NCBI GenBank assembly: GCA_017499595.2
Contig: CM039000.1
Span: 2,170,001-2,234,000 of the forward strand
Reading direction: 5' to 3'
DNA from: Psilocybe cubensis
Lineage: Eukaryota
Length of the DNA: 64,000 bases
Made by a program: the position numbers and the translations under genes. This document shows, piece by piece, positions 1 through 21,674 of this stretch; positions within the stretch are counted from its first letter, which is position 1; the number at the start of each line of letters is the position of its first letter. The notes beneath the pieces are model-generated. The model worked only from the letters and a program-made list of their open reading frames with translations. It had not been told where the DNA came from and searched no databases.

Positions 1-4
1 AATG

Positions 5-672
5 CTATCGTGCAAGTGTGACCAAAGATAACACGAAGTCTACTAACGCAGACAGTCTTTGTGCACCGCTGGTCTGTGGATTCGTTGTCGGTGCTTTCAT
101 GCAGGCTAATGCTTTACAAAAAACAGGTTTTTCGGGATTTTGAATGGCCTGGTTTGATTCACTGATTGAATGAAACTAGGGGTTGTTAGTGTCGTCAAAC
201 TTCATATTGGCATCCGGCCTCACCTTTTGGTCGCAAAATCAGCTAAAATTCTGTCGCGCCCCCCGAGGTTTACCAATTCTTGGTGTTTTCCTTTCTTAAA
301 GACGACAATATCACCCTTCCAATTGCGCACTCTCCATCTCCGAATGCTTCTGTTAGGGGGGAGCCTGCAATGGTTCTTGACAAAGACATGAAACTGCGCA
401 ATCTTCCCTCTATTCGAAATTGAAACAATAGCATCGTGGATGTATGGCTGCAGGCGTTTCCCTCCCATGACCAGGTCGAGACGGGGGCTTCTGCCGCTTG
501 TGTTCTGAAGGGTGTGTATCGCTTTGTTCACGGGTCTTTCTGCGTGCGCGCCATAGTAGCGCGCTCTTAATGATAGCGAGGTGTCCTGGAATCCTTAAGA
601 AGAACGTCAAGTATCCTCGCGAAATTGCTCACCCTAGTCCGTGGGATATATTTAGCAAGTGCAGAAACCATA
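5..672 (-). CDS. Multi-exon hypothetical protein, TE-associated type
   Basis: ORF 220-531 (LQPYIHDAIVSI..FHVFVKNHCRLPPN..WKGDIVVFKKG) extends upstream in frame (LRARYYGAHAERP) and is bounded by GT-AG signals. Ends are approximate. Confidence 0.4.
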
Positions 673-1007
673 GTTTGGCGGGACTGAATGACGGTAGAGG
701 GTGAATGTGGGTGTATAGGGTTGAAAGAGAGGTTGAAGGTACAGGACCAGTGAGTTTTAACATAATCATTCACGACGCCTTTGATACAAAGAAGTTGTTT
801 GGCCCAGGTTTCCATCAAAAGCACTCGAATGGGCATGCGCTCGCTTCCTTCAATCCGCGCCGGTTCGGCGCGGCGCATTTAACAAAGGAAGATACGGTGT
901 GTTCACTTGCTCGTCCTTTGACAAAGAACCTGGCATGGCTTATACTTGATCGTCAGTATTTCCATCTTGTAAGAGCGCCACTCCCAATCATCACACCAGA
1001 TCCAAGC

Positions 1008-4000
1008 ATGGACGACGCTTCGATGGAAAATCTCTCTCTGCCGGGAGCCTTCAACAGCTCCCCTACAGAGCAAATGGATATCACCTCCAGCGACGACGTC
1101 ACCCGCAATCATCCAGGACCGTCCCAGACTCCCCAATCCCCTACAGAGCAAATGGATATCACCTCCAGCGACGACGACGCCCGCAATCATCCAGGACCGT
1201 CCCAGACTCCCCAATTACAGTCCCAGATTCTCAAACCACAAGAATCGGGCAAGCGAAAAAGGAGTGATCATGAAGAGATATCGTCGAGAAAGTTAATTGC
1301 AGTCGAGCCTGAGTATCTTCAAGAACTCGAGTTCGCGGTAACTCACTTCAATTGCCGTCTCAAATTTTAACTCAACATACCGTTGTATTCAAGGTTGATG
1401 AGTTGACTAAGAAGCTCAAATCGAAGGATAAAGAAATAAAGCGCCTTCAGAGCATAGAGCCGAGCGTCAACGATTTGAAAGATGCTGAAATTCGACACCT
1501 TCGCGTTGTAGAGCAAAAGGTTGAGACTTTGATTATTGGAAAGATATATGTACTAATAGTAATGTATCATCCAGATATCCAAAGAGAAATCGGCGTCTGA
1601 TGGGGCATATAAGACCTTACAATCCCAATTCGAAGACTATAAACGAGTACGTTTCCCAGGCTTCATGTTATCGTACCTGCGTTTAAGCATCGAACAGGAC
1701 GTGGATCGCCAACATAAAGAAGCATCCCGTGCTAAAGAGCACGAAATGTCTGAGGTATGTAGTCTACCAAAAATCAGAAGCATCAGCCTCTCATTGCTAG
1801 CTGTTTTCAAGCTGGAAGCAAAGTTCAAACAACAAATCGAAGAACTCCAAATTCATCATGACCGTACGGTGGAGGAATTAAACAAAAAGGTTGAATCCCA
1901 GTCTCTTCAGATTTCATCTCTGGTGGAAGACAGTCTTGAAGAATCAGAAACTGCGAAAATATTGCTAAATGAACCCGATGGAGAGGGGTCCAATATCTTG
2001 GAAGAGGACATGTCCCATATCAAGGAGCTCGAGGATTCGAATATGGCGTTTACGGAGCGAATAACTGCTTATGAGGCTCAGATAGCGAAGCTCAATGCTG
2101 ATTTGGAGGAGCAGAAGGCGGAGTCGTCAAAGCTAACGCGTGCTGTTCAGGAGCTTGAGGGACAGTCTGTCGATGGTATCAGCAAGCAGGAGCGTATCAC
2201 GGAACTTGAAGCTCTTGTGAGGGCGAAGACGACCGAACTTGAAGAGTTGAAGCACTCTACCTCTCACGCCCAAGACCTTGAAAATCGCATCAACGAACTA
2301 CAGGGTTCTCTCCAGGAGTCTGACAGCGAAAGGGAGAAATTGATTCAAGCACAACAAGTATCAAGCCATCGCGAGAATGTTTTAGCTTCAGAACTCCAAA
2401 CTGTGCGCGAAAAGCGCAGTGAGCAAATTAAAACGCTTACTGCCCAAGTGCGACTCCTCGAAAACGAATTGTCCGGAAATCAAACTGCACTTAAAGATCA
2501 AGGTCAGGAGCTGGAGAGACTGCGCGCGGCGTCTACCCAGCGTAGGACCGCTGACGAGGCTGAGATAGCGAAGCTCAATGCTGATTTGAAGGCGCTCAAG
2601 GATTCGCAACAGTCATCCGCTGATCGTGGTGCCTTGGACGCCGACCACATTCAAAAGCTTGAAGCTCAGTTGACGGCACAGACAAATAGGGTTCAACAGC
2701 TCGAGATAATGAACGCAGCCTCTATCGAGAATGCGTCTGCTTACGAGACTCGTGTAAAACAACTTGAGTCTGATTTGGAGGCGCAGAAGGCGGAGTCGTC
2801 AAAGCTGACGCGTGCTGTTCAGGAGCTTGAGGGACAGTCTGTCGATGGTATCAGCAAGCAGGAGCGTATCACGGAACTTGAAGCTCTTGTGAGGGCGAAG
2901 ACGACCGAACTTGAAGAGTTGAAGCACTCTACCTCTCACGCCCAAGACCTTGAAAATCGCATCAACGAACTACAGGGTTGTCTCCAGGAGTCTGACAGCG
3001 AAAGGGAGAAATTGATTCAAGCACAACAAGTATCAAGCCATCGCGAGAATGTTTTGGCTTCAGAACTCCAAACTATGCGCGAAAAGCGCAGTGAGCAAAT
3101 TAAAACGCTTACTGCCCAAGTGCGACTCCTCGAAAACGAATTGTCCGGAAATCAAACTGCACTTAAAGATCAAGGTCAGGAGCTGGAGAGACTGCGCGCG
3201 GCGTCTACCCAGCGTAGGACCGCTGACGAGGCTGAGATAGCGAAGCTCAATGCTGATTTGAAGGCGCTCAAGGATTCGCAACAGTCATCCGCTGATCGTG
3301 GTGCCTTGGACGCCGACCACATTCAAAAGCTTGAAGCTCAGTTGACGGCACAGACAAATAGGGTTCAACAGCTCGAGATAATGAACGCAGCCTCTATCGA
3401 GAATGCGTCTGCTTACGAGACTCGTGTAAAACAACTTGAGTCTGATTTGGAGGCGCAGAAGGCGGAGTCGTCAAAGCTGACGCGTGCTGTTCAGGAGCTT
3501 GAGGGACAGTCTGTCGATGGTATCAGCAAGCAGGAGCGTATCACGGAACTTGAAGCTCTTGTGAGGGCGAAGACGACCGAACTTGAAGAGTTGAAGCACT
3601 CTACCTCTCACGCCCAAGACCTTGAAAATCGCATCAACGAACTACAGGCTCGTCTTGGGGAGTTCGAAAGAGAACGGGAGGGACAGTCTATTGATGGTAT
3701 CAGCAAGCAGGAGCGTATCACGGAACTTGAAGCTCTTGTGAGGGCGAAGACGACCGAACTTGAAGAGTTGAAGCATTCTACCTCTCACGCCCAAGACCTT
3801 GAAAATCGCATCAACGAACTACAGGCTCGTCTCCAGGAGTCTGACAGCGAAAGGGAGAAATTGATTCAAGCACAACAATCATCAAGCCATCGCGAGAATG
3901 TTTTAGCTTCAGAACTCCAAACTGTGCGCGAAAAGCGCAGTGAGCAAATTAAAACGCTTACTGCCCAAGTGCGACTCCTCGAAAACGAATTGTCCGGAAA

Positions 4001-6735
4001 TCAAACTGCACTTAAAGATCAAGGTCAGGAGCTGGAGAGACTGCGCGCGGCGTCTACCCAGCGTAGGACCGCTGACGAGGCTGAGATAGCGAAGCTCAAT
4101 GCTGATTTGAAGGATCAGAAGGCGGAGTCGTCAAGGCTAACGCGTGCTGTTCAGGAGCTTGAGGGACAGTTAACTGATGGTATCGACAGAGAGAACCGTA
4201 TCGTTCAACTCAACAACGATCTAGACGCGAAGACTGCAGAACTGAAGAAGTCCAGGGAGGAGTCAACCTCTCATGCCCAGCAACTTGAAAATCGCATTGG
4301 TGACTTACAGGCTCGTCTCCAGGAGTCTGACAGCAAAAGGGAGAAATTGATTCAAGCACAACAATTATCAAGCCATCGCGAGAATGTTTTCGCTTCAGAA
4401 CTCCAAACTGTGCGTGAAAAGCGCAGTGAGCAAATTAAAACGCTTAACGCACGAGTTCGAGACCTCGAAAAGGAGTTGGAACAAGCCGCGACCAACTCTC
4501 GCGATTCACTTAGTAAAGAACGGGAGCGATACCAACAGATGTCCGTTGAGTTTCAAAAACAACAAGCAGCGCTATCTCAAACAACTGAAGATCTCAGTAC
4601 TGTCAAGGCCGCTCTTGAAAAAGAATTTGAGGACCATGGTAATACCAAGTCACTGTTGGAGCTTTTACAAAGCGACCTTGTGGACTCTCAAAAAGCCATC
4701 TCAATTCTTAACAGTCAATTAGAGGCCACCATGGCTGACCACATCGAATTTGGAGAGGAAGCGCAAGATTCGGACTCGGTAATTACTTCTAATTGTATCT
4801 TTTGATGTATATTCAATGAAAACTCCATAGGCGATGGACCCGGATGCACCAGAAAGTACTCCGTCGGCGACTGGAAAATCTCAAAAAGCGGCGGGCAAAC
4901 GTCGTCAAATGTCGATGATGCCGGATACCACCCTATATACGCTTGTAAGACAATTAGCGGTGTTGTAGCTTGGCCACATGTCGCTAACAATGTCCTGCAG
5001 ATGAATGATATGCCCAAAGAATGGCCACAGCGTTCGCCCTTTTCAAGGTTATCAAAAAAACTACCAGGAAAGTGTTTCCAGCCAACACCGGATATCGTAG
5101 GCAGCACACCTGTCTATACGTTTGTAAGATACCGACTACCGCCACTTTATTTGGTATAACTGAAGTCAAATATCCTTTAGATGAACCATAGGAACGGCGA
5201 CCTGCAGGTAAATATGGAGCCAGAAAATTCAGCAGAACGACCCACCTTTTCAAATTTTTTTAACCAAACGGAATTTACTCCCACTCTCTCTACCTCTGCG
5301 AACCGTTCTTCGCCCGTCCGAGACGGTGACCTGGCCTCTTCTTCCAATCCAGGGCCATCAATACCCAACAGATTTTCAAAGCCGGGTCACTATCGAAGAG
5401 GTAGAGCTACACATCAATCTCCACCTCCACCTTCCAGTGCTATACCCAGATCTGGTCGAGACGATGTGCGAGGAGTCGAGGCTTCGACAGCCTTCCATGC
5501 AGATACTCCGGCAACGGTCGCTGACCCCTCTGTGGTTCCACCTCACTCTGTATTCTCTTCGACGCCTCCTGTCACTCCTGTTCCTCCTGTTGCCTCAGTA
5601 TCTGCTGCTGAACGTGCTTTTCAAGAAAGAATATTGAATACGCTAAGCACTCTGTCGAGTGATGTGAGAGGCGTCGTTTCGGACGTGCAAGAACTTCGGT
5701 CTAATGCAAATACACAACCTGCAACCCCTCGTAGGAGGATTCCAAACAGGAAACCTTACTCTCCTTACAAGCAAGCTGGTCCTGTTCGTCCCCGCTCAGC
5801 GGACAGAGTTCTTATTCTAGTAGTATTCTTTTCGCCTCCACATCATCCATTGACTGAATATGATTTTTTAGAATGCCAGCCGGCAGTTACAACAATATCT
5901 CCTCGGAATATCCGAAGATGACGACATCTTCATAATGGATTCCATTCACATTGCATCACCAGCCGAAGTAGATAAGTTCGAGAATTCGCTACGAGACCCC
6001 CCACCATTGGAACCTCTTCAACTTCACTTCGACCAAGTGAAAGTGAAATGGAACGCTTATCTTGCGGACCTCTTTGCTGAACAGTTCTTGCGATTACACA
6101 GCAATCTTAATGCTACTGCCGATCAAATCAAGGAACACTTCATGGCAAGAGTGCAAATGTTTCGTGAGAAATTGATTTCCATCGTTCCAAGGCCAGGAGA
6201 AACCAGCGAACAATGTTTCGATCGCGTAAGGGAGGAACGTCTAAATGCCAATCGCAGGAAGCGGCGCCGCACTAGGCAACGTAATGTATGTCAATATCTG
6301 TTTCCTTACACTTACACAATTTCTTTGCTAATGTCGGAGAAGTTGTATGTGGACCGTTATAGTAACTGCATAGATGCCGGTCGTCATGATATTGCAGATG
6401 TCGTCTTGACACTTGGCGAAGATGGAATGAGCGAAGACGAAACAGACGGAGAAGATTCCACAGTCGTCCTTTTGACGCAATGGCGCAACCCAAAGCTCCT
6501 GACTCCATTAAAGATCGCTGATAGCCTGCGACCGGCTACAAGCGTCAATGGAACCAGACGACCAGGTAGCCGACCCCTTAAACGCAGAAGACTACAATCC
6601 GCACGGGAAGGTTATCAACCAGCTCCAGATCAGCGTCCAGAAAATTATTACTATTCTTCTTGGCGGGCCTGCTTATCTCGTTATGATATAGCGCTCTTGA
6701 AAATGAAAGATGCAAAACCATTTTTCGGGGAGTAG
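1008..6735 (+). CDS. Large multi-exon protein: long repeated coiled coil, Pro/Ser-rich linker, C-terminal domain with LGEDGMSEDETD..QWR motif
   Basis: ORFs 705-1370, 1352-1600, 1665-4805, 5181-5921 and 5935-6735 are co-oriented and can be joined by short GT-AG introns (e.g. 1338-1393, 1756-1811, 4780-4830). Could be two genes. Confidence 0.65.
1059..1214 (+). repeat. 78-bp tandem duplication (26 aa, SPTEQMDITSSDD..RNHPGPSQTPQ x2)
   Basis: Units 1059-1136 and 1137-1214 are nearly identical. Confidence 0.95.
2100..4445 (+). repeat. In-frame 672-bp (224-aa) tandem repeat: two full units plus rearranged partial units
   Basis: Unit starts at 2100, 2772 and 3444. Identical antisense ORFs at 2388 and 3060 are offset by 672. 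Further sub-unit copies run to ~4445. Confidence 0.95.
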
Positions 6736-8123
6736 GCGTAGAATCACTTTTTTAAATCAACTCGGATATTTCCTGTCACAAAGATTCTAGCTGTTAATCT
6801 CATGCTTCTATGTATGTACAAAGATATATTCACAATGCATCGCACGTTATTCAGTCCTTCGTCCAAAATGCGGTTAAACCAGAAAGATCTCCGCTTTCAT
6901 AAGGACAGCCAGACAAACGGCTTCAACGGTTAATAATTGACTTTACGCTTATGTAGTCCGCGCGATACTCAGAAATATAATTGACCTGGAAAATGGGAAT
7001 TACAGGGGGAAGATCATATTAACTAGCAAATGCGCAAACGACATCTATTTTTACATGCCAACTCTTAGGCTAGGATGGGCATTGCTCTCAACATCAAGGA
7101 TCACAGTAGGTAAGCGTGCAGGCAGCATGCAAAGATCACTAAATAATAAATCAATAAGGGTTGCATCAGTTGTCTGCTCTGGGGTGTATCTTTTCTACGG
7201 AAATGGTGCTAGAACCAAATGGGATCGACCTGTAATAGGAAATGCACCGTTCTTGAGACAGATTGAAGGTCCTTCAAATATAACCAGGGCGTTGGTTATG
7301 GTAACGCATAGACTGAATAAAGAGGGGCTCACAATCTATAATCGCAGACTTGAATTCTGTCCTTGCCCGAAATTGGACTCGAAATAGCGTGCTAAGGAGA
7401 AGTTGTAGATCAAAACCTGGTGCTTAAGAAAGAGAGACAGAAGACGAAAAACGTACTCTCGCGAAATGATGACCTTCTGTATATGTCATGGTTTGCCCTA
7501 AAACGTTGATGCAACCGATGGAATGGAGAGGACACAGCAAAGGACGGGCGTTGCAACTCTGTGTGAGGAGTGAGTACTGTGCGCAGCCGTCTTCGTTCAG
7601 CCACGTACATTAATGTTGCCCCAGTTTCCCGCTCGAGCCTACACGTCTCCACGACTGAAGTACATGCGTTCGTGTCGGGCGACGATGGACCCCTCGCTGG
7701 CCATCCAGGTTCGACGACTTGCTAGCCAAAGTTTGGATGTGGCAAATCAGTGGAAGCGTCAAGGTAAGTGAACCTGCTACTTACTTGATTGGTATTTTAT
7801 CGTGCACTCTCAGCGATGCTCGTTCTGCACAGAGAGAAGGATGCGAATGTCATCCACCTGCGCAATGTGCATGGAGGATATGGGAATCAGGGTCTGTCAG
7901 GTATATCAGCGAATGCCATGGGACATGCGACGTAAACAGACTTACCCAGTCATACGTCTGCGTATACGCGCTCTACACATCATGCAATGCAATTCTGATA
8001 ACCTATTCCCATCCAGAGGGCCCTATCCGTGCGAAAGGGGTTGTGGAGTTGAGTTGGAAGGAACACCGGTATCCGAACGATGACAAGTCCGGGATCTTGT
8101 TTGCTTAATAGCGCATAGTGCGG

Positions 8124-8793
8124 ATCGTTGGTGTTCGGGATAGGAGATGGGCTATACTATGTAAGTTACTACAGAAAATTAGGTAGACAGAACGAAACAT
8201 ACCTGTGTAGAACAAGAGGAAGGAAATGGTGAAACGAACGACTTGAGTGAGAATCGTGTGCGTCTAATCGCATGGTTAGCAAACGGCGGGTACACTGGAG
8301 TTGCGACTTACCAGACATGCTTCAAAACTTTTGCGATGTCTTGTTCGCTGACCTGTATCTGCGCTGAATGACTGACCCAATATACAACACTGTGCAGAAA
8401 ATTGTGTTACTTACGGCGAGCGTAGAGATCTCATACGTGCTTAACATCTGTGTTGGCACTTCGATTACACCTCACGCACAATATCATTCGGTCCCCATTT
8501 CGCTCCCTGTAGTAGTATTTGTATTATTTACATGGTACACTACGCTAGACTGCCTACATGGATAGCAGCGCTACTCGGTCTATATGTGCTACTTCACCCG
8601 CTAGATGAGCATGGTTGGAACAGAAGAAGAAGAAAGCGTGAGAATATGGCCAGCACGCCAACAAGTACCGCAGAAGTTCGATGCCGCTCATGCCGTCGCC
8701 AAATTGGTGATGCGCGTGATTGGTGGCACGGCATCAGCGGCATCAAACTTCTGTCCTGTATCATGGCGATTTTGTGACGGTGTGACGCCTTTC
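8124..8793 (+). repeat. Left arm of ~670-bp inverted repeat
   Basis: Reverse complement of 11474-12143. ORFs 8368-8565(+) and 8532-8777(+) are identical to 11702-11899(-) and 11490-11735(-). Confidence 0.97.
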
Positions 8794-8967
8794 ATCCTGT
8801 CCCTCAAATGCGGCGCGTTGTATCGTATGTAAATTGGTTAAATGATGGACACAATTCATGTGCTAGTATTATACGGAAGCGTAGGTCAGAACTGTATTTG
8901 CTATCAGCGGAGAGAAAATAGTGTTTCCATTCATGATACGTTATTGATCCATCCACCGAAAATGAGT

Positions 8968-9437
8968 TTAAAATAGAAAATGAAGTCTGGTAGATAAGTC
9001 CCCGCTTTCATACCGTATTGAATCTTCCAGCATCCCATCCAAATAATCGACTTCAAAATATCCAGGCATATGACCCCGCGTACACTTAGGAGTTCCCCCA
9101 GATTTTCCAGCCGACGGACTCGCATTTCCCTTTTCTTTGAACGAAAAGAGCACATTCTTTAACGCATCCTTGACCTACGAGAATGTTCGTCACGATACTT
9201 GTAAGGACAATCAAGAAAAACACTTACAGCGAGGTATGGCCAAAATATTAATGAGTGATCCACCTCCAAGTGTTCTCCCTGTTGCGAAAGAAACCGCGAG
9301 CGTCGGATGAACTTGATTTCTTCCGGAGGGTTTCGCGGAACACATAGGGGTGAGAGCTGAGAAAGTCGAAATTCGATTCTCGGAGTGATGAGTGGAAGTG
9401 GCGCTTTATTGAACATTTTTGCTATGAGAGGTGCCAC
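8968..9437 (-). CDS. Small hypothetical or degenerate gene in the inverted-repeat spacer
   Basis: ORF with PLPLITPRIEF followed by possible intron(s). No recognisable domain. Confidence 0.25.
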
Positions 9438-11473
9438 AACTGGGTTTGGGGCAGTCTGTAAGTTGCGATGGAGGTGTATGCAATCAAGGATTCACGACGC
9501 TTTATAAGAAGCAAGAACAAAGGCAATCTCCGCGACAAAATATCCTGACCAATCTTGACAAAGGTATTAACTAAATGAGCGCTTTATTCGCTCAACACCC
9601 ATCTGAACATAGAAAATGACCTACCAATGAGATATATAGAAGCTAGAGAAGGTCATGTATTTCTACATACCCACACTTACCCCGGAATGCGAGATTTTGG
9701 GAAGGTGATTTCATGATTTCAACTGGCGGAGATCATCAATGATCAATGGGATAATATATAGTTTTAATATCCACTGTCGGTCATACCGCCATAACAACGT
9801 TTATCGTCATTATGACGGCGCCAAAGGGCGTGATTACGTGGCTGCATGAGCGACATTGGAATTGTTTGCTATGTCAAAGCGCTCCTGCGACAATGCCATC
9901 TTTATCCCCTTTCCCATAACTCTTCGACAAAGAGAAACAAGATAAGATGGATCTTTGTTCAGAAAACATTTAAAAGGTCGATAGGTTAATATGTACTCAG
10001 TACGATATTTCCTGCTGTAAGAAACTTCATGATGCCCGTGACGAGGGAAGGCCACGATGTAATTCTGAAGCATATCGTCATCGTTTCGTGGCTGATCCGT
10101 ACTAATCATTCCTACAGGTCGATAACCACAGTGATGACAATGACTATCAGAATCAGAAGCAAATGATCGAAGCAAAGTTGAAAGAACTAGTAAGTATTTT
10201 AGAACATCATTTTATTAAATCATGACAAAACTTTGCGATGACAGATTTCAATGATGCGGGCTGTATTTTGTGACACCCATGGTAGACGCGAAAACGACGA
10301 TGAAGACGGAAAAAATAGTGAACAAGACGAGCAAGACGAGGACTTGGATCCTTGGCCGGCGAACAGCAAACGCTCAAGGCGCGTTCAATGGCGGCTGGGG
10401 CGCAAAACTAAGCGATCTCGAAGGAATTTCAGGCGCAGAATGAGGGGTGCTTCGCGCTCTCCCAACAAGCTCCGCGGGTCCGACTCCGACTAGTGGGCAG
10501 ACAACGAGGTATGGGGTTGTGCGCTGGGCAATGGCCGTGTTAGACTGTTGAACGAGATTTTAAACCACCCACTGGCAGGACAAATTGGGGTTGGAAAGTC
10601 ACCGAAGATTATTATATCAAGTAGAGCTTGGGTTAATAAATTTAGTATATCAATTGCAGATATTGATGAAGCGACATACTTCATAGATTGAAGAGAATTA
10701 TTAGACGGGAACATCTCGCGTGTTCGAGAGAGTAAATTTGGCTTACAGTACGTGTAAAACAATTGAGACTGGTGCCGCTCGAATACCTGATAGAAAAAAG
10801 ACGGAGCCAATCTATAGTTGCATAAGCAGGAGACTCGACGGGAGCCATGTGCAAATCCTGTATATTCCAAGTCCCGATATCGTGAAATCCAAATTAAAAC
10901 GGCAACCTGCAAAGAGGGTACCTCGCAGACCGGGTGCTTACAGTAGGCAGCGTCGTACAAAACATAAAGTTATGGCAGCATTCAACGTTCAATTCTTGAA
11001 TGTAGGTGGGTGCGTCGTTGAATAAGTGAGGTCTGTAAAGCAATGAGGCGGCACATGTGCTGTAGAATATGTTTCCTGCACTGATAGCAAAGATGATTCC
11101 TCACCTATGTTTGTGACGCTCGAATACGGGTCTGGCAGGCGAAGAGGCGGCGGGTGTGCTGTAGAAGGTGTTCTTGGCTTGTGTTTCCTGCCTGATAGTA
11201 ATAAAAATACGATTCGCACCTATGTTTCTGCGTAATTCACTATCCAAATGAATTGTAGTTCCTCCTCGTTCTGTGTCGCTCACCCGACTATTTCCTCTGC
11301 CCTTCCAAGCCGGGTCTATGTCACTTGAACTAAAATTGTATTACTAGAGTACGCAGCTAGCTAAGTTTATGGTATTAGAGTCTACACTAAAGTGCTACTA
11401 CTACAGTAAGCTCGTATGCGAACCATCTCTACGTACGACGTGCTTCATAGGAGTGAGTGTTGAGAGAGAGGTG

Positions 11474-12143
11474 GAAAGGCGTCACACCGTCACAAAATCG
11501 CCATGATACAGGACAGAAGTTTGATGCCGCTGATGCCGTGCCACCAATCACGCGCATCACCAATTTGGCGACGGCATGAGCGGCATCGAACTTCTGCGGT
11601 ACTTGTTGGCGTGCTGGCCATATTCTCACGCTTTCTTCTTCTTCTGTTCCAACCATGCTCATCTAGCGGGTGAAGTAGCACATATAGACCGAGTAGCGCT
11701 GCTATCCATGTAGGCAGTCTAGCGTAGTGTACCATGTAAATAATACAAATACTACTACAGGGAGCGAAATGGGGACCGAATGATATTGTGCGTGAGGTGT
11801 AATCGAAGTGCCAACACAGATGTTAAGCACGTATGAGATCTCTACGCTCGCCGTAAGTAACACAATTTTCTGCACAGTGTTGTATATTGGGTCAGTCATT
11901 CAGCGCAGATACAGGTCAGCGAACAAGACATCGCAAAAGTTTCGAAGCATGTCTGGTAAGTCGCAACTCCAGTGTACCCGCCGTTTGCTAACCATGCGAT
12001 TAGACGCACACGATTCTCACTCAAGTCGTTCGTTTCACCATTTCCTTCCTCTTGTTCTACACAGGTATGTTTCGTTCTGTCTACCTAATTTTCTGTAGTA
12101 ACTTACATAGTATAGCCCATCTCCTATCCCGAACACTAACGAT
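11474..12143 (-). repeat. Right arm of ~670-bp inverted repeat
   Basis: Matches 8124-8793 with only isolated mismatches seen (ttcaaaac/ttcgaaac; ggtgttcg/agtgttcg). Confidence 0.97.
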
Positions 12144-12345
12144 TCCTACTGACATCTCTGGTTGGCTGCCACTTCACTTAGGCTACTTCTACAACTGTTT
12201 CACCTCCGTTTCGCGGCGGAGCGGCACAGAAAAGACGAGAGCATTGTCGTCCATGTGCGTCACCTCGCCAGGCAAAAGTCGTGCCCATCACGACGCAGTT
12301 CACTAGGACGCTCAGCGACATCTTTGGCGTGCTCGACTACTTAAG

Positions 12346-12548
12346 TTGGAGCTTGTTCACCGCTGCCTTCGACGAGGAACGCTCTGATTCTCTAGTGAGG
12401 TTGGCGTATGGTCTCCTCAGTGATCTGGCCAAATACTACTCGAACGGACGGCTTAAGCAGCATTCCTGTCCAATTGGCTTACATCAAACTGCGATCTGGA
12501 AGTTGTATTCCAGATGATACCATGAACACCATGCCTCGGGCATGCGAG
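12346..12548 (+). pseudogene. KAP95: Frameshifted C-terminal fragment of importin beta-1
   Basis: Across frameshifts it reads LELVHRC/FDEERSDSLVRLAYGLLSDLAKYYSNGRLKQ/FLSNWL/LRS..IPDDTMNTMPRACE, resembling the final HEAT repeat of fungal Kap95. Confidence 0.7.
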
Positions 12549-12627
12549 ATTTTTCGAGGGTATTTTTTGTATCCTTTCCCTCTTACTTACGACTTAGGCT
12601 TAGGGACTGCGGACAGTGACGTTAGAC

Positions 12628-13300
12628 GGGTAATTCGGCGGCTTTTACAACAATTATTTTTCTCCCTGTTGTTCGTATTATAGCTGTTGCTACAATCTGG
12701 CTAGGAATATTGCCATGCATAACAGTGTGGACGTCTTTTCCATGGGAGAATCCGCGTACGTACTCATCCGGGATCTCAATCTAATATCCACTTCTGATAG
12801 CTTCCTCTATCGATAGAATTCGCTACGAAGCCCCTGGGCCGCCATCCAACAGCATTTTTTCTCCAAGGTTTCTTCACATCCGGCATGGTTAGCGCCCTCG
12901 GCAGACATATTCACCGGCCTGATCATCGCATCGCTCATTGTACTCATCTTCGTTGCCGTCTTCCTCCTCCGTGAATGGATGTCGCAGAATGCTCGCCTGG
13001 GCGTATTCGAAGAGGAAGAGCTCCCCGATCTGCCCCCCGTTCACGCGCCTCCACCGCAACCACAACTGCAACATCAACCCAGGCTCGTCCGCCATTTTGC
13101 GCCGCTCGACCCTGCCAGCCTGAACCTTGAGCGTGGAGGGAACGCGCCGCTTTCAATGAGCGTCAGATCGAGGCTCTACGTATGGAGGCAATGCGTCAGA
13201 ATCTGGACACAAACATCGCCGTGGACCCCAACAGATGGCGAGCAGACGCCCAAATAGCCGCTCTTAGGGATAGGAAGAAAAAGATGAATGCCAAAAGCTT
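12628..13300 (+). pseudogene. DOA10: Internal fragment of ERAD E3 ligase Doa10/MARCH6, RING absent, frameshifted
   Basis: RRLLQQLFF/VRIIAVATIWLGILPCITVWT/FSMGES, a retained intron at ~12758-12800, then ADIFTGLIIASLIVLIFVAVFLLREWMSQNARLGVFEEE. Right end approximate. Confidence 0.8.
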
Positions 13301-14249
13301 CAACCCACATCATACGGTACGCGATGAAAACCAGGGAGAAACGGACCAGGAGGATGTACAATTTGAATTAGAGCAAGCGAGGAAGAAAAAATTCAACCAA
13401 CATGTTACAGTGGCGCAGGACGGGGACGAGCCTGGGTTAGTAAGTCCCAGCGAATCGGACGATACAGAGGATGATGAGGACGATTTCCATGAAGACGATG
13501 AAGTCGACAATGAGGGACATGGGCATGGAAACGGGCGTAGACATCGACGTCCACATCCTCTCCGACGGCCTCATTTCGAAGAAGAAAAAGACGACGAAGA
13601 CGACGAGGAAGACCAGGCAAAGTTGTGCAGTGGGGTGCTACCACCACCACCAACCCCTTTTTGCGGGTTTTCGATTCGACTGTTGACTCTTTGTTTGACT
13701 TTGCCTTTCGATCTGAAGCGGGGAGAATGGCGTGGTATACCCACTGCCCACTTACACCTACACCAACACCGTTTATCGACTATCGACCTTCACATTGGCT
13801 TTTGGTTTGCCAACCCAGTTTGTGTTCTACGGTTACACCCTACGCCTACACCGACGCTGACACTAGCGCCTCAGCTCATCTTACCTCACACCGACTTGCA
13901 GTACGCTCTGAACATCTTACACTGTTACACACCACATATCACACCATAGCATAGCATATCTTACACAACACCCACCAGACAAACTCGAATTCCGACTTAT
14001 AAACCCAAACCCAAACACGAAATCAAGACGAAATGAAAGCACTAGACACGAACCTGTACACTCCCATCATCTCATCATCTCATCGTGGCGCTTTTGGTTT
14101 TCCCCACTGTATGATGTCTGCGTCTACTTTAACCATTCACTTCGTCCCGCCCACACCGACGTCATCGTCGTCGTCTTCATCCGCTGCATCGTCCGCGTCG
14201 CTATCCACGCTGCCGACATCGTCGAATCCAACCCCCGCTCGTCGACTCT

Positions 14250-14301
14250 CACCACCACCACCACCACCACCACCACCACCACCACCACCACCACCACCAC
14301 C
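14250..14301 (+). repeat. (CCA)n microsatellite, ~17 units
   Basis: Directly visible. Confidence 0.95.
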
Positions 14302-14399
14302 CGCGCCGATCTTTCTATCTCTACCACCACCACCACGGCCGCCGCGCACCTACTCCCATGCACCGACCACCATCACCTGTGATAACAAACACGACACTG

Positions 14400-14620
14400 C
14401 ACACACCAGCACCCACACACAACCTCACGCTCATACGCACCGCCGCGGAGCTCATCGAACTCGACGTGAAACTGCGCAGTACGCACCCGGGCCTCAAAAT
14501 CCCATCGCTGCCCATCGACCCCGCCGGTCTGCCCCTCGCGCAGCAGAAGAAGGGGAAGGAGAAGAAACGAAAGTCGACGTTTTTGAACACGCTTTCGCGG
14601 CTGGCGTCGCCTGGGGGTGG
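14400..14620 (+). pseudogene. Gene fragment, possibly PX-domain-like
   Basis: HNLTLIRTAAELIELDVKLRSTHPGLKIPSLP resembles the PX pattern R..xF.xL.xxL...P..xP.LP. Embedded in low-complexity DNA. Confidence 0.3.
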
Positions 14621-15667
14621 CAAGGGGATGGGGATGAGTATGGGCATTGGGATCGGGAAGAAAGGGGGGAATACACCGCTTGTGATGGCTCCTGCCAAGT
14701 AGGGCCCGGATCCGTTTGGCTCGTTTGGTGCGATGACGCTTAGTTGGAGTGTTAGTGGGAGTATTGGAGGGGATGTGAATGGGTGGTCTGCCGCGCCGTC
14801 CATGACGAATCTAGCGTCGACTGCGTTGTCCACTGACGCGCTTGATAGGGATGGGGTCATCTCGACAGACAGAGAGAAAGAGGACTATTGATCACCCGGA
14901 AGGCGAGGACGCTCATGGTCGTGTGGCCGGCGGTATTATCGAAGAGGATGAAATGGAGGTGGAGAATGTTAGCTCGCAACGTCAGCAACATCTGGCAAAG
15001 TTGAATAATGCACTCAAAACGACCACCATCATCGGCGGCCTATAGGACGCGCGCGGGTTCATGCGCGTGCGGCTTGATGAGGTGAGGCAGAAGATGGACG
15101 CCGAGGAACAGGCGAGGGATGTGTGAGTGTTTTTTTATTTTATTTTTTTATTTCTTTCTTTCTTTCTTTTCTGGTTTTTGGGGTTTTTTGTTTTTGGAGT
15201 GTGGTTTTTAGAGAGTATGTTTTTTGGATTGTTTTTTTTGTGGGTTTATTTGGATAGATTTCGGTGGAATGGACAGATTCCAGTTTCGGAGGTTCTCTAT
15301 TCCATCCATCTTGCAGAGGTACTTTGAACGAGCACGGTTCTGGTTCTTGTTCATGTTGTTGTTTGTTCGAGGGTGTATCCTTCGCCTTCGTCTTCATCTT
15401 CGCATAGATCGTTTTGGCCGATGCATGCATGTACGGGTTGATTGATACGGGTGGATAGATGGTTCAGGACGGATAGCAGGATGGATAGAAGAACCGTCGG
15501 ATGGGCTTTTGCTTTTACTTTTATTTTCTTTGCTTTTATTGTATCCCATTCTTTTTTATCCTATTCTATTCCCATTCTTATCTCTAATTTTCTAAACACA
15601 ACTAACACCCCTTTTCCTCTTTTCCCTCCCTTCCCCTACACTTATTTAACTTACTACAACCTACAAG

Positions 15668-15803
15668 CCTCCGCACTCAATTCACCCAAACACACGAAGA
15701 CATCGCAACATCCTCCTCGCGCTGCTCCCGACGCTCTCGGAGCAGGTGCTGCGCGCGATGGATGTGGATGCGGTGAAGCGGGAGTTGCAGGCACGGTCGC
15801 GGG
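15668..15803 (+). pseudogene. PEX3: Peroxin-3 N-terminal-region fragment, frameshifted
   Basis: LRTQFTQTHEDIA/ILLALLPTLSEQVLRAMDVDAVKRELQARSR matches the Pex3 pattern LRRRFxQxQED..LALLPTL..QIL..MDVE....ELQ. A pyrimidine-rich intron end precedes it. Confidence 0.7.
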
Positions 15804-16549
15804 TGGGTAAAGGGAATAGGGAGCAGCAGGTGTTGGGGATTGGGAATGGGAATACACCAGCACAAGCACCGGCGAATAAGAGGAGTGTGTACCCACTTGC
15901 ACCGTACCCTTCCACTCCACCTCCGCCCCAGCCTCGTCAAACGCCTCCACAACAGGCTCAGGCTCAGCCCCAGCCTCATCAAACGCTTCACGCACCTGCT
16001 CACCATCACCCACACCAGCGCCCGCACCGTTCACACTCTCGCCGCCCGCACCCGTGTTCGTGCCGCGCGCCGCGTCGTTGCATTCCGCGTCGTTGTACCC
16101 GTTCGCCTGTTTCTTTGCACTCGCCGTACCTTTCGCTTTCAGGGACAGAGTCAGAGTCTATTTCCATCTCGCACGACACGCAGGAGATATCGTCGTCGTT
16201 TGTATCGGACAACGGGTCTGTGAGTCGTAGTTGGGTCGTTGAGGGTTCGGGTGAGGGTTCCGAACAAGGAGGTGCAGGGGAGAGAGCGCCATCGCCTGCT
16301 TTGAGCTCTGTTTCTGGTGTTTCCCGTTTCGCATTCGAATTCGACGGATGAAGGGGAAGGTGGGGATGAAGATGAAGATGGTACGTCACTTCTCTTTCGT
16401 TGTGGGAGTTTGATTTTATCTGATTAAGAAATGTGTATATGTGTAGGCAGAGAATGTGATTAGTGTGTATACGGACACTGATGCGGATGCTGTTGCGGTT
16501 GCGGATGCTGGAGCGGGAGGATCGGGATCGGATCGGGAGGAGCGGGCGT

Positions 16550-16840
16550 AGATGCGTTGATCACCTTCGCAGTGCCCTCCGATTCCCACAGTTCTCTTGC
16601 TGTTACTTGCGCCGGGCAGGGAAGTAGATCCAGTGCCCGGACTAGGTCTCTCAACCATCCTAACTATCGCTCTCCGGGGAGGGATGTCGTAACGTAGTAC
16701 TAGGATTAACCGCCTATATTTAATGGGAAGTACTCCTGTTTCAGAATAAAGAACTGCCGTTATCGACCTCGGACCCAAACCCAGTATTCGTCGCAGACAC
16801 TTGATCTGCACCTGTTCCAGGAGTCGTAGCAATGACCTGC
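16550..16840 (-). mobile_element. Non-LTR retrotransposon (LINE) fragment, post-RT region
   Basis: LEQVQIKCLRRILGLGPRSITAVLYSETGVLPIKYRRLILVLRY, then WLRDLVRALDLLP in another frame. RT catalytic core absent. Confidence 0.8.
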
Positions 16841-17352
16841 GATCGCTCCTTCTGTAAGTTCGCATATTGTCTGCGCTTTTTTGTTCGAAGCTGAATTTTG
16901 GAGCAGCTGGTGTATCCACACGACTGGCGCGAAGATGACTTTGTGGTCTTCCACAACCGTGGAGTTCTGCACACTGTCGTCGGTGCATGCCCTTGACCAG
17001 GTGCGCGCGTTCCACCAGTGCAACCTCGCTGCATAGGATGAGCCCATGGGCCCTTCAGCCGAAGACGTCCAAACCTATGCTTGAGTTAAGGCGGGTAATT
17101 TGCAAGACTTTCGTAGTCAATGGCATACCATTCCTCGATGTCTGGGTCGTGTCGTTTCCTCAGCATTTCTTGGAGCCTGAATTCCCCGTACCTTGTCAAG
17201 ATTGATCATCCCACTTGGGGAGGATATAGACACAGATGTTCCCGCTGGCATCGTCGAAGTCTATCGTGTGTTAATTGTATTGCCAAATAATAGACAGAGA
17301 AAAACATACTGCAAGGGTTATTAAAAAGTTGAGAGGAGATGTACCATCGTCG

Positions 17353-18170
17353 GCTTGCCGATAAGCAAACAGGGAAGACGAGTATTGGGAATATCTTCAT
17401 TGGTATGTAATTCTTTTCTCTTGCCGCGAAGGTGTTGAGCTGATGTCATCTTTTAATTACTTGCGTATAGCCGGTCTTGGGGCTGGAGTGACGGAAGCTG
17501 TTGCCATCGTGACGCCCATGGAAGTGGTGAAGATTCCTCTGCAAGCTCAACAACATTCATTGGCCGATCCTCTTGAAGCGCCTCGGTACCGTAATGCTGG
17601 TCATGCTGTGTACACCATCATTCGTGAGGAAGGAATCTCGACATTGTATCGTGGTGTCTCTTTGACGCCACTGAGACAAGCTACGAATCAGGGTACGTCT
17701 TCATTCGTGAATAGCCGAAGAACGCCTTTCTTAAGGCTTGTGTGTCCACCTTAGGTGCCAACTTCACCGCGTACCAAGAAATCAAGAAGCTCGCGCATAA
17801 GTACCAGCCAGACTTGGTCGAGCTACCATCCTACCAACACATGATGATTGGTCTTATCTCTGGAGCTATGGGTCCGTTCTCAAATGCACCAATAGACACT
17901 ATCAAAACTCGTACGTCCCTTTTTAACTACACTTTCTTAGCCTCTCTTACTCAAATCAATTATATCAGGTCTACAAAAAGCCAAAGCAACTCCAGGCCAA
18001 TCCTCCTTCCAGCGCATATTCGCGATCGCGGCAGATATGTGGAAGATGGAGGGCGTGCGGTCATTCTACAAGGGCATCACCCCCGCGTGCTGCGCGTGGC
18101 ACCCGGGCAGGCGATCGTGTTCGCGGTTTATGAACGCGTGAGCGGCGTTATTGAGACGATCAGCCCAAGA
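17353..18170 (+). pseudogene. SFC1: 5'-truncated, intron-retaining copy of mitochondrial succinate-fumarate carrier
   Basis: AGLGAGVTEAVAIVTPMEVVKI.LQAQQHSLADPLE..LRQATNQG/ANFTAY..GPFSNAPIDTIKTRLQK..PRVLRVAPGQAIVFAVYE with three introns. First carrier repeat missing, KIR>KIP substitution, and a 1-nt frameshift near 18080. Confidence 0.9.
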
Positions 18171-19259
18171 GTGAGAGAAGATCTCATCTCCACATGTATC
18201 CCTGCATGGTCATCCACTCTTCCTCCAACCCATGTTATCTCCATGGCTTCCAACGACAGGAGCGCGTCTTCCGAGACGATGATGTAGTCAATGACAGAGC
18301 GGCCTCCGTTGGCCTGACTGGAGGTCCACTGTGGGAACGGCGTTCGGTCGATTGGTGTCCCATTCACGACATGCAGAGAATTCTGCCCCATGATTTCCAG
18401 TAGGCGATTCCCTCTAGCAATGCAGGTATTATCTGGAGACACTCGTACTAAGTGCGATCCCGCTGCTTGTTGCAGGCCTATACGCGCGTTCAGGTCGCCT
18501 ATAATCATGTATGCCTTGGATCGCAAGACACAAATATTCGATAGCCTCCCCCAGCCATGTCTTAGGGTCCACATGCGTCCAAGATTCCCATCTGGAGTTC
18601 TCTGGCACAAGATACGAGCAGATTAGGATTAGGGATGGGAGCTCAAGGACCAGTATATCTGGGTGCATGATCTCGTCGCATATTCTATATTTTACAGTGT
18701 CCCGTATAATTACAGTGACGCCGCCCAGGGGGTGCCGCCATGGTCGCGATCGTGCCACTGGATGAAAACCGCGAGGTAGATCCAGAATATCCTCTTGCCC
18801 TGGCGCCATGTGTGTTTCCTGGAAGAAGGTAACATCATTAGATAGTACGAGATCCCTATACATTGGCGTATGGATTGATGCCGCGAGTCCTCCGTTGCAG
18901 TTCCAGGAGGCTACGCTGAATCTGGCGCTGTTTGTTTCTATCAGTGCCCGATGTGTGGAACCCGTCATCGCCGCTCTGCTGTTTGCGTATGCCCTGAAGT
19001 CCTGCGCATCCGCATACACCCGAAATCGGAGCCTGATGCGTCTCGCTTTCCTGGCATGCGTAACTGATACCAAACGTTCCATAGCTAGCCCATTGTCCTG
19101 CATCCATTCTCGCCCCATCCGCAGACGCTCAATTCTTTGGCATTGTAGTGGCCCCCGGAGAACATCTGTAAGATTGACGTCTCTTTCTTGCTGAGTTGCT
19201 TGTGTTGACGACATGCGTGGTGTGATTTCTGTTAGGACCGCTGTGAGTGGAGTTTCCAT
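18171..19259 (-). mobile_element. LINE fragment: AP-type endonuclease domain, frameshifted
   Basis: SWNCNG..FFQETH..YLVP../IIGDLNARIG..SVIDYIIVS..DDHA, split across ORFs 18429-19259 and 18128-18610. Confidence 0.9.
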
Positions 19260-19944
19260 GATAAGAAGAATTTGTTTTTGGTGATGGTGCGTGTTTTATC
19301 TCTTTTTTTTTCCTTTTCTTTTTTTTACTTCTTTCTCTATGTGCGTGTTTTTATTGACATTGACAGTCTTTTTTTTTTTCAATAGGATACCTTCCTGGAC
19401 ACGGAACCCGTACTGGGAGAGTTCACAGAGGAGGATCTCGAGCAGGAGCAGGATACCTACCAGAAGCCGCAGACGGACGCGGACCGCACGGATGGCGAAG
19501 GGTACGAGACAAACACGGCGCCGTCGCAGTCGCGCAGCTCGTCGATACGCATGGTACAGAGTCAGAGTCAGCTGCAGCAGGGACAAGGGCAGGACTGAGT
19601 CAGCAGGTGCCGGTGCAGCAGGTATCCAAACGGCAAACGCGCGTTAATTTGCCTCTAAAGGTGCTGACGACGCTTGTTTGGTAATAAAAAAAATGTTGTT
19701 TCAAGCTTCATGAAATAACATAGGCCACAGATGTCCGCGAATGTTAAGGAGTTTTATTATTCAGAAATGAGATTATGAGTCTTCAATGAGTATGATACAA
19801 ATATAGCGAATCAAATGGTAAAATTCAGGGATATATGTACAATAATACGAAGCGATAGCGATAAACCGAAAGCAACAAGAAAGCAACAAGAAAGCAACAA
19901 GAAAATGAAGAAAAGATAACAACAAGAAAAACCCGCCGGGGCGC

Positions 19945-20488
19945 CTAGTCGGTGCGGACAGGAGCGACATCGTATGTCTCGCACATTGCGAGATACAGGG
20001 CTCGCGCAGGGTAGGTGGCACGTATTTGGGCCTCGATCGCGATATCGTTGAGAACTTTCTTGCGCTCAAGTTCGAAGCGGTCGAGCTGAATTTCGTGCGC
20101 TTCCGATGTACCAGGCCGAGTACGTGCGCTTCGATTGTCGAGAATTTTTTTCAGGGTTTTAATCTCCTGGCGAACGCGGATGAGTTCCTCGAAATCGGCG
20201 TCGTTGGCTGGTGAGTGTTGAGCCTCCATGTCGCTGATCAACTTTCCTCCTGAAAGGAGCGGTAAGACGCTGTTCAAAGCTACAAATACTCACTGGCATA
20301 CCGCTACGATTTCGCAGAACAACTGGCGCTTCGCTATTTTTGTTGATGTAGCGAGCTATCGCCCCGAAGGCGGGCCCTCCGTACGTGCATAACCACTCCA
20401 CGATCTCGCATCCCGACGCGAATCCGTATTTGATGCCGTTGACGAAGGAAACGATGGTGGAAAAGATGTTGGAGACTATTGTGGACAT
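19945..20488 (-). CDS. Small two-exon orphan protein (~165 aa)
   Basis: MSTIVSNIF..NRSG joined by a GTATGC...TTTCAG intron (~20301-20250) to GKLISDMEAQ..VAPVRTD*. The reading frame is preserved across the splice. Confidence 0.55.
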
Positions 20489-21022
20489 GGTACGAATATC
20501 GATGTTGATAGAGGGCGTGATGAGCGAGGACGATGAATGAATGTGTTTGAGCGAGTGAGAGCGAGTGTGGTGAGTGTGGTGAGTGAGTGTGAGTGAGTGT
20601 GGTGAGTGAGTGGGAGTGTGGTGAGTGATAAGAGACTGCGAGAAAGTTGTTCTGAGAGACATCAATTCATAGAAGGCAATGGCAAACGATGGCAAACGAA
20701 TAAAATACATTGATGTGAGTATATACATTGCTACTACAGTGAAATAGAGACTCAGGTTCTAGAAATAAGAAGGGAGAAAAGCAGCTTTGACTGTGTAGCA
20801 TTTGTCAATTTATGTGTATGGTAGTAGGACACACCCGAGCCCAAAAAATACATATATTTCACTCGAAAATACGTTTTTTCTCGCTGAATAAACATGCGTC
20901 ACTGATACAGCGTTATTGAATGAAGAGCGTGTTCTCGTCGCTGAATACACAAGCGCCTAAGTAGCGTTGGTGAGGTGTGTCGCTTATCACCGAGACGCCA
21001 AAATAGCCGTAAAATCGCTGGG

Positions 21023-21097
21023 CGTGTCGCTCAACGCGCGCCGATCGCGCGTCAAGCGCGCGCTGATCGCGCGAGGAGGCGCGCGCTGAGCGGCACG
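21023..21097. repeat. GC-rich imperfect hairpin/palindrome
   Basis: CGTGTCGCTCAaCGCGCGCC ... GGCGCGCGcTGAGCGGCACG, with internal GATCGCGCG repeats. Confidence 0.8.
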
Positions 21098-21113
21098 ATG
21101 AGCGTGTCGATGT

Positions 21114-21515
21114 CTGTTTGACAATCTGTTTGATTTCAAACAGATATTATGTTTGATTTCTTACACAACTTATGTTTGATGTTTATGGTCGATAACATAC
21201 AGAATATACGGATGATTTCATGCACAAATTATCAAACAGGAGTTATATTTGGAATCAAACACTATTTATCAAACACAATGTACGTTTGTTATCTTACAGC
21301 GAACTTGACAGATTTTCTGTCAAGCCCGTGTTCTTTGACAAACAGGCGTCAAACATACGTTGTGTTTGATATCACATGCCTATCAAACATAACTTATGTT
21401 TGATGCTTGTTTGTCAGCAAACACAACTTATGTTTGACATCAAACATCGTCTTCTTACATAATATGTGTTTGATTGACGATGTTTGACATCAAACATGTA
21501 TCGGAGCCCGCAGTG
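21114..21515. repeat. Subterminal-type array of TGTTTGA/TCAAACA motifs in both orientations, ending in CAGTG
   Basis: About 17 motif copies by manual count. Palindromes ATCTGTTTGA-tt-TCAAACAGAT (21124-21145), ATCAAACATAA-c-TTATGTTTGAT (21382-21404) and TGTTTGA-ca-TCAAACA (21431, 21481). Confidence 0.9.
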
Positions 21516-21674
21516 ATACAGTGAAAAGTTGTTGGAAAGTTGTCAAAAGCGGTAGACAATGGCGGCAGAGCAGCCGTAGTGCGTGGGAAACGATCGACGG
21601 TAGCATTTGGTTCGATGGCGTTGACTATAACTTGAACCTTCTTGAACCTCAACCATGGCACCCCCTTCTCCGCA

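Follow-up and report, generated by a model that had tools for sequence, protein, structure and literature searches.

A probable very large CACTA/EnSpm-type transposon with an exact right end in the mushroom Psilocybe cubensis

The 64,000-nucleotide (64-kb) stretch of Psilocybe cubensis DNA analysed here, called the window below, covers positions 2,170,001 to 2,234,000 of contig CM039000.1. Its positions 1-21515 are best explained as the right-hand part of a very large class II (cut-and-paste) transposon of the CACTA/EnSpm (Transposase_21) superfamily, probably longer than 21.5 kb, of which position 21515 is the exact right terminus. We put the probability of this explanation at roughly 0.7. 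The presence of a very large, recently mobile CACTA/EnSpm-type element is well supported. It measures at least 9 kb and probably 21 kb or more, and the chance that the whole 21.5 kb forms one unit is about two in three. Recent mobility is suggested because the copies are nearly identical, their number differs among strains, and the insertion is missing at this site in two public runs. The superfamily is proposed because the gene carried by the element, here called the companion gene, is linked to Transposase_21/DUF4218 in related loci, where the termini are also similar.

The right border was located with public data. Eleven public runs contain part of 19000-24000, and four of them were aligned to 12151-30150 at a likeness of at least 85%. 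Run X1 consists of contigs, X5 and X11 are contigs with 0.65 and 0.55 of the words, and X12 consists of raw reads under the same species label. In all four runs the depth to the left of the border is well above that to its right, and the raw reads give the same picture as the contigs:

X1: depth about 156 over 12151-20550 versus 15.9 over 21751-30150, ratio about 10
X12, both directions summed: about 316 versus about 33 over the same intervals, ratio about 10
X5: about 57 versus 12, ratio about 4-5
X11: about 100 versus 24.3, ratio about 4
12151-21113: multicopy body, collinear, with a depth of about 4-10 times single copy in the four runs

The X1 unitigs run unbroken over 12420-14234 and, past skipped simple repeats (14242-14348 and 15125-15197), over 14349-20653. 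Since this chain has a depth of 141-158 throughout and shows 0-1 differences, the copies must be collinear and nearly identical. At the border the sequences part. The X12 reads leave the window behind 21515, 21516 and 21518 in 504, 240 and 131 cases, with an agreement of 0.37-0.57, and in X1, X5 and X11 two to four contigs each diverge at 21515-21519. Dozens of different continuations were found over the four runs, and the multicopy repeat therefore ends exactly there. A single-copy X1 contig coming from the other side ends at 21486, which is k-1 = 30 nt inside the repeat. The repeat accordingly has an exact end at 21515, and 12151-21515 (at least 9.4 kb) is one collinear multicopy repeat, present in roughly 4-10 near-identical copies in P. 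cubensis strains. The initial annotation of the window had held that its proposal would fall if the terminal sequence were single-copy or if multi-copy alignments did not break at 21515/21523. The terminal sequence is multicopy by its elevated depth in all four runs, and the break lies at 21515, not at 21523.

The sequence inside this border has the build of a transposon end. The heptamer TGTTTGA occurs 31 times in the whole window, both strands counted, whereas shuffled sequences contain 13.2 on average (standard deviation 3.6) and none of 100 shuffles reaches 31. The end region has the following features:

21115-21496: subterminal array of 17 exact TGTTTGA/TCAAACA heptamers in 382 bp, 9 on the plus and 8 on the minus strand
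21503-21515, minus strand: terminal 13 nt, reading inward CACTGCGGGCTCC; exact end of the repeat
21516-21518: flanking ATA, a possible target-site duplication, seen at one end only
21016-21104: G+C-rich palindrome of CGCGCG type directly inside the heptamer array, with a DNA fold of -41.3 kcal/mol (z -3.55)

The extended consensus of the array heptamer is AAnTTATGTTTGAT, and three palindromic heptamer pairs (TGTTTGAnnTCAAACA) are found at 21127-42, 21431-46 and 21481-96. On the 3' side of the array the window reads ...GCCCGCAGTG / ...GGAGCCCGCAGTG, with 21515 as its last base, followed by ATA. The termini of CACTA/EnSpm elements have the form CACT(A/G)...(T/C)AGTG, in fungi CAC..GTG, and the right end, the one that is seen, has this form. 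It is also accompanied by the expected subterminal array, in which a short motif occurs in both directions. By analogy, the heptamers are likely binding sites of transposition proteins. The abrupt stop at a direct and inverted heptamer array with a CACTG-type end, as initially described, is confirmed by the array, by the end sequence and by the divergence of reads at 21515-21519. The 26-nt terminus had no exact match in metagenome contigs.

The left part of the visible element is occupied by a gene for a giant coiled-coil protein:

1-21515, plus strand: visible part of the element; multicopy over 1008-6732 and 12151-21515, presumably so for the rest; left end outside the window
1008-6732, plus strand: multi-exon gene for the giant coiled-coil protein, with several introns according to tblastn
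1563-4802: coiled-coil open reading frame (ORF) of 1080 codons with internal 672-bp repeats
2045-4463, plus strand: tandem units of 672 bp (224 codons), 94-99% identical
5872-6732, plus strand: last exons, encoding a conserved C-terminal domain of the GMSSDESD...WRS...LPxNFY type; no Pfam model

The ORF at 5872-6732 matches seven long P. cubensis proteins at 93-94% identity, a value below full identity because the query ORF includes an intron of 18 codons. These proteins represent at least four loci, each annotated twice, on different contigs of 3.1-4.7 Mb. According to tblastn the paralogues match the window completely outside the coiled-coil repeats, whose number varies between them, giving proteins of 1271-1771 amino acids (aa). 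Because the number of units varies in this way, the repeat array evolves faster than the rest of the element. By sequence comparison, then, the coiled-coil gene is multicopy, and its paralogue number (4) is of the same order as the depth of the body in X5 and X11. One of the paralogues is gene number 23 of a 4.7-Mb contig.

The last 270 aa of the coiled-coil protein form the conserved domain mentioned above, which we call the companion domain. Its hallmarks are W-N, GMSSDESD, WRS, PG..PR.R and LP.NFY..W. It was found in 201 representative clusters at E<=1e-3, always C-terminal in proteins of 270-1600 aa. Pfam gave no match in 42 of 45 domain homologues and only weak or unrelated ones in the other three; for the window proteins P0003 and P0006 it gave weak coiled-coil matches only, and an Atlas search with the companion domain returned unnamed clusters only. 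The AlphaFold model of the domain (pLDDT, predicted local distance difference test, 88.6) matched no fold in the PDB, the best Foldseek E being 1.9 and the best VIA-align Z 5.0.

A search of metagenome contigs with a closer alignment of the domain yielded 158 relatives; 80 loci among them were retained. In the 25 fungal loci of at least 7 kb, 123 ORFs of at least 190 aa, out of 367 of at least 130 aa, were scanned. Pfam detected Transposase_21 (tnp2, the plant CACTA TnpD family) in 12 of the 25 loci and DUF4218 in 4. In 10 of these 12 loci the two genes share a strand, with Transposase_21 following the domain gene at a distance of 0.6-5 kb. Because at least one pair of contigs, L029 and L030, is one element seen twice, the independent count is somewhat lower. 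A third ORF family of about 800-1000 aa recurs in L001, L004, L005, L008, L027, L030, L036, L058 and L060 (for example L036:11256-14201). It has 86 homologues by profile, for example in Galerina, Gymnopilus, Pluteus and Cyathus, and its database relatives are labelled PF28437. It had no match in the local Pfam copy, and an Atlas search with one homologue was empty. Profiles of our own for the transposase and the third family gave the counts below, in which the ORFs used for building match their own profile by construction; the independent extra matches are L003, L005, L031, L049 and L050. The fullest relative, L005, is listed with them:

25 loci of at least 7 kb: transposase in 15, third family in 9, either in 19
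All 80 loci: transposase in 17, third family in 15, either in 27
L005 (more than 18 kb), 1370: terminus
L005, 2276-4867, minus strand: third gene
L005, 8677-9522, plus strand: domain gene
L005, 13740-17420: internal inverted repeat
L005, from 17901, plus strand: transposase, running off the locus at 19520

The order of domain gene, inverted repeat and right terminus in the window is the same as in L005. From these comparisons the companion domain can be assigned to a family that adjoins Transposase_21/DUF4218 genes in related fungal elements. Two metagenomic loci also have a FunK1 kinase gene next to the companion-domain gene (L001:99-2003 and L067:7668-10033).

The ends of the related loci resemble that of the window. 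The termini of L005, L060, L001, L026 and L036 read CACTGCTGG(A/C), compared with CACTGCGGGC in the window, so that 9 of the first 10 positions match. Several relatives end in CACTGCTGG followed by heptamer arrays, like the CACTGCGGG of the window. The L005 element starts at 1370 with CACTGCTGGAAG..., after which 10 ATTCTGC/GCAGAAT heptamers follow in 450 nt, and in L060 the same 12-mer closes the element at 14925, accompanied by 11 heptamers in 450 nt. L001, L026 and L036 end in CACTGCTGGC..., matching each other at 17 of 20 positions, 590-950 bp past the last ORF. Outside the six ends the adjoining bases are rich in A/T (ATA, TTT, CTA, TTT, TAT and TTG), which is compatible with a short A/T-rich duplication and is no proof of one. 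PMC12730594 gives CAC..GTG termini and 3-bp duplications for fungal EnSpm. PMC5751038 describes CMC/EnSpm as expanded in Agaricomycetes. The CACTA-like assignment of the initial annotation is thus upheld by the CACTG-type terminus, the subterminal array and the Transposase_21/DUF4218 genes beside the companion gene in relatives. The basidiomycete cargo-mobilising unit that it further inferred is no new class, the superfamily being already known from this latter source.

A number of observations weigh against a single long CACTA/EnSpm element. X1 is perhaps the window's own source, and contig depth, as measured in X1, X5 and X11, is not a copy number. Near matches to a partner terminus occur within the 64-kb window at chance level only, no target duplication was seen, and no related locus has both ends. 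Heptamers number 6 in L001; the array of L036 is weak and L026 has none, so that these two are without a clear array. The bare pattern CACTGCNGG is found in the loci 14 times where 11-14 are expected, and because this is chance frequency only sites with context count. There is no P. cubensis protein among the 86 matches of the third-family profile. A Pfam scan of 379 window ORFs (189 of at least 90 aa from the whole window and 190 of 45-89 aa from 1-21.6 kb) detected no transposase or recombinase family. Neither tblastn with 22 ORFs of related loci nor the two profiles of our own detected a remnant of the transposase or the third gene in the window; the best match (E 0.014) is a single weak stretch at 20035-20388 that was not repeated by profile. 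The terminus, finally, is deeper than the body. The terminal 400 bp have about twice the body depth in X1 and X12 and 4-7 times in X5 and X11; for the last 365 bp, corrected for flank within the bin, this amounts to about 23 times single copy in X1, 20 in X12, 19 in X11 and 32 in X5. Different inner flanks run into the array as well, at 21113 with a single contig in each of X1, X5 and X11, and at 21435 with 399 X12 reads. The deeper terminus and the alternative joins therefore indicate that the terminus is shared with other elements, and the terminus alone is no proof that the long body moves as a unit. The 30-nt consensus sequences of the inner flanks that join at 21113 and 21435 do not occur in the window. 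Since neither these flanks nor a second terminus is present, the other end must lie outside it.

One alternative is a composite built from nested repeats, in which the terminus together with the final 0.4-1.5 kb would be a short element. The 20 kb upstream would then group unrelated, coincidentally multicopy repeats and genes that form no single mobile unit. This is in agreement with the climb in depth toward the end (in X5 82, 160 and then about 390 from 19951 onward), with the alternative sequences joining at 21113 and 21435, and with the LINE-like (long interspersed nuclear element) remnants in the body; the multicopy status of 6.7-12.1 kb, moreover, is presumed from its surroundings. Against it, the depth is even over 12151-20550 in each of the four runs, at a level of about 4x or about 10x, and the X1 unitigs are collinear at 141-158. 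The four coiled-coil paralogues are comparable in number to the depth of the body in X5 and X11, and the related loci share an order of domain gene, internal inverted repeat, further gene and terminus. We consider such a composite unlikely. For one long element, the extra terminal depth fits a second, inverted terminal copy per element together with further elements that share only the terminus. Of the initial claim of one very large element, the true multicopy end and the collinear stretch of at least 9.4 kb stand, but the element is a family of about 4-10 copies and not a unique unit, and its terminus also occurs in other, more numerous elements.

The superfamily has to be judged from relatives, and a different superfamily with terminal inverted repeats (TIRs), such as KDZ, hAT or a Mutator-like one, with long subterminal repeats should be considered, for example an element like KDZ1 of Cryptococcus. 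Large basidiomycete KDZ elements with long TIRs and extra ORFs do exist; KDZ1 itself is given in PMC11343200 as 10.9 kb with 236-bp TIRs and 8-bp duplications. Kyakuja elements end in CA..TG too, with 7 bp and no TIR according to PMC12730594, and since the window has no transposase the superfamily is deduced indirectly. However, KDZ, CxC, hAT and MULE domains were absent by Pfam both from the 379 window ORFs, in which the DUF3435 captain was also missing, and from the 123 ORFs of related loci. The transposase that recurs in those loci is Transposase_21/DUF4218, and the terminus is of the CAC..GTG type with a 9/10 match to the termini of related elements, which makes a different TIR superfamily very unlikely. 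Plavaka does not fit: its termini are TGT..ACA (A) or CATCA..TGATG (B) according to PMC12730594, unlike CACTG..CAGTG, and Plavaka Pfam matches in relatives are weak and secondary to Transposase_21. The models named in the initial annotation (Transposase_21, DUF4218, KDZ and Plavaka) had no match within 1-21515, and the Transposase_21 gene that marks CACTA/EnSpm is accordingly not among the features of this part. The transposase may lie upstream of the window, or this copy may be non-autonomous.

The insertion site is also informative. To the right of 21515 two FunK1 (Pkinase_fungal) genes, HSP90, CRM1, CCT and other housekeeping genes are found. These are host-type genes at single-copy depth that start right after the end, as initially stated. 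The FunK1 genes are single-copy by depth and therefore lie outside the repeat. The window's copy of the element lies upstream of a kinase gene, at a distance of about 150 bp. X11 has a 38.6-kb contig at single-copy depth that matches from 30150 back to 21807 and beyond that differs from the window over at least 6.6 kb; a contig of the same kind in X5 has 2.9 kb unlike the window. This suggests that the element is absent at this site in the strains behind X5 and X11. The empty site that had been predicted for other strains is thereby seen as single-copy contigs that continue differently past 21807, but not as a base-exact empty site, and 21516-21806 is not alignable at 85% in the X5/X11 haplotype. 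The two FunK1 genes of the window (21665-27739) are tandem copies, 72-83% alike. Over 21807-22449, the 5' part of the first FunK1 gene, the window haplotype differs from the X5/X11 haplotype at 82 of 643 nt (about 13%), and 23098-30150 differs by only about 0.5% in X5; the haplotype beside the insertion is thus sharply diverged. A further alternative, without any transposon, is a block that has been segmentally duplicated or is subtelomeric and spreads through recombination. It is suggested by the paralogue that is gene 23 of a 4.7-Mb contig and perhaps lies close to a chromosome end, and by the adjoining FunK1 genes, which are common in variable regions, but it is hardly credible given a base-exact border with many different flanks, a CACTG terminus and heptamer array built as in transposase-bearing relatives, and a location that here abuts housekeeping genes.

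Between the coiled-coil gene and the right end, the proposed transposon contains an inverted repeat and a mosaic of fragments:

8117-8807: inverted repeat, left arm, 691 nt, 99% complementary
11460-12150: inverted repeat, right arm, 691 nt
15650-16348, plus strand: Peroxin-3 fragment, Pfam profile positions 63-142 of 458
17339-18284, plus strand: fragment of a succinate/fumarate mitochondrial carrier (Mito_carr), 5'-truncated, with introns, residues about 95-314 of 319
18131-19295, minus strand: degenerate, LINE-like Exo_endo_phos/endonuclease-reverse-transcriptase remnant, each match below the Pfam cut-off

The arms of the inverted repeat enclose 2.65 kb without clear ORFs. A nested TIR element was considered for this structure and rejected, as no duplication flanks the arms. 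Internal inverted repeats of 100-190 nt occur in four of six relatives examined (L005, L017, L027 and L060). In L060 and L027 the domain gene lies between such repeats. Its orientation with respect to its neighbours varies among loci, and the segment between the repeats may be invertible.

The region 12.2-21 kb, which in relatives is the usual slot of the transposase, holds a mosaic of host-gene and LINE fragments. The carrier fragment is 70% identical to its Hypholoma orthologue, and a weak importin-beta Pfam match is found among the fragments. The ORF at 16419-17054 (minus strand), without a Pfam match, looks like the C-terminal region of ORF2 of a non-LTR (long terminal repeat) retrotransposon; it would represent, together with the remnant at 18131-19295, a LINE interrupted by the carrier fragment. 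The coiled-coil ORF, the inverted repeat and the gene fragments that the initial annotation named upstream of the end are all present, but there are no functional host genes among them. What had been called the cargo of a cargo-carrying unit consists of truncated gene fragments and no working host genes. Carrier and Peroxin-3 fragments lie in a multicopy body, and the visible part of the element lacks a transposase, a combination that would suit a Pack-type element. Over 12488-12863, single-copy contigs in X1, X5 and X11 match the multicopy body and skip 54-60 nt at three places. These contigs may come from the parent gene of the captured importin-like fragment, with a different intron content.

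Shortened forms of the element also seem to exist. Joints of single-copy depth skip 14988-19246 in X1 and X11, and 13609-14623 and 14645-16355 in X11, with a short matching side of 21-40 letters; we read them as internal-deletion derivatives. In L004 a truncated Transposase_21 ORF is followed by a dense GGAATCC/GGATTCC array (12300-12590, up to 14 in 400 nt), and this locus looks like an internal-deletion derivative too.

A mechanism can be proposed by analogy with En/Spm. A DDE transposase, perhaps together with the companion-domain protein, would bind the TGTTTGA array, pair the ends and cut at the CACTG termini. The visible copy would have lost its transposase, and pieces of host genes and LINEs would have filled the slot between the inverted repeat and the right end, as happens in Pack-type elements when gap repair aborts. 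It would then be a Pack-type, probably non-autonomous derivative that retains the companion gene and both cis-acting ends. Unless there is a transposase upstream of the window, where the third gene would be expected as well, a relative with the same terminal array could move such a copy in trans.

A broader possibility, which we put forward only tentatively, is an undescribed Agaricomycetes clade of EnSpm-like transposons of about 15 to more than 20 kb. Its core would consist of a PF28437-family protein (about 900 aa), a GMSSDESD/WRS-domain protein and a Transposase_21/DUF4218 transposase, combined with CACTGCTGG termini, family-specific heptamer arrays and internal inverted repeats. The P. 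cubensis element would be a mobile, transposase-less derivative of more than 21 kb with host fragments, varying from about 4 to about 10 copies between strains, and the companion protein with its growing coiled coil might be the array-binding factor.

The superfamily itself being known, what is new is the P. cubensis family, its size, its recent activity among strains and the connection between fungal CACTA elements and a domain family without annotation. No published description of the P. cubensis element was found; the supplementary termini figures and sequence files of PMC12730594 may contain related families. The element would be an unusually large, recently active DNA transposon of a cultivated mushroom. 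Its copy number and insertion sites vary among the strains, which would make it a strain marker and a source of structural variation. Tying a widespread unannotated Agaricomycetes domain to CACTA/EnSpm should improve the annotation of genes and repeats in mushrooms. The element also provides a fungal example of gene-fragment carriage by a CACTA-type transposon, without establishing a new class of mobile element.

Several known systems can be compared with this element. Maize En/Spm and plant CACTA elements have CACTA/CACTG ends, subterminal arrays of a motif in two orientations that bind an element protein, a two-protein system and internal-deletion derivatives. The window shares the CACTG end and the short-motif array in both orientations, but the heptamer is different, and Pfam reveals no similarity between the companion domain and the plant TnpA families. 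The Starships of Pezizomycotina are alike in size class and in the carriage of non-transposase genes; however, they have a tyrosine-recombinase captain at one end, which is missing in the window, while the relatives carry the DDE-type Transposase_21. The gigantic transposons KDZ1-3 of Cryptococcus (PMC11343200) are likewise large basidiomycete TIR elements with extra ORFs that are mobile today, yet they carry a KDZ/CxC transposase and make 8-bp duplications, whereas a KDZ domain is absent from the window and the related loci. Plant Pack-CACTA and other Pack-type elements (PMC6379663) resemble the window copy in being apparently non-autonomous, in having several host-gene fragments between their ends and in occurring in multiple copies; the window element differs in being fungal, far larger and in retaining one intact element gene. 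From fungal EnSpm/CACTA (CMC) elements (PMC5751038; PMC12730594) it differs in that there is no transposase in the visible 21.5 kb, the body is largely gene-fragment filler and the companion gene has a long coiled-coil expansion. It agrees with them in its CAC..GTG-type terminus, in the A/T-rich bases outside the end, which are compatible with a 3-bp duplication, and in a companion gene that adjoins Transposase_21/DUF4218 in relatives.

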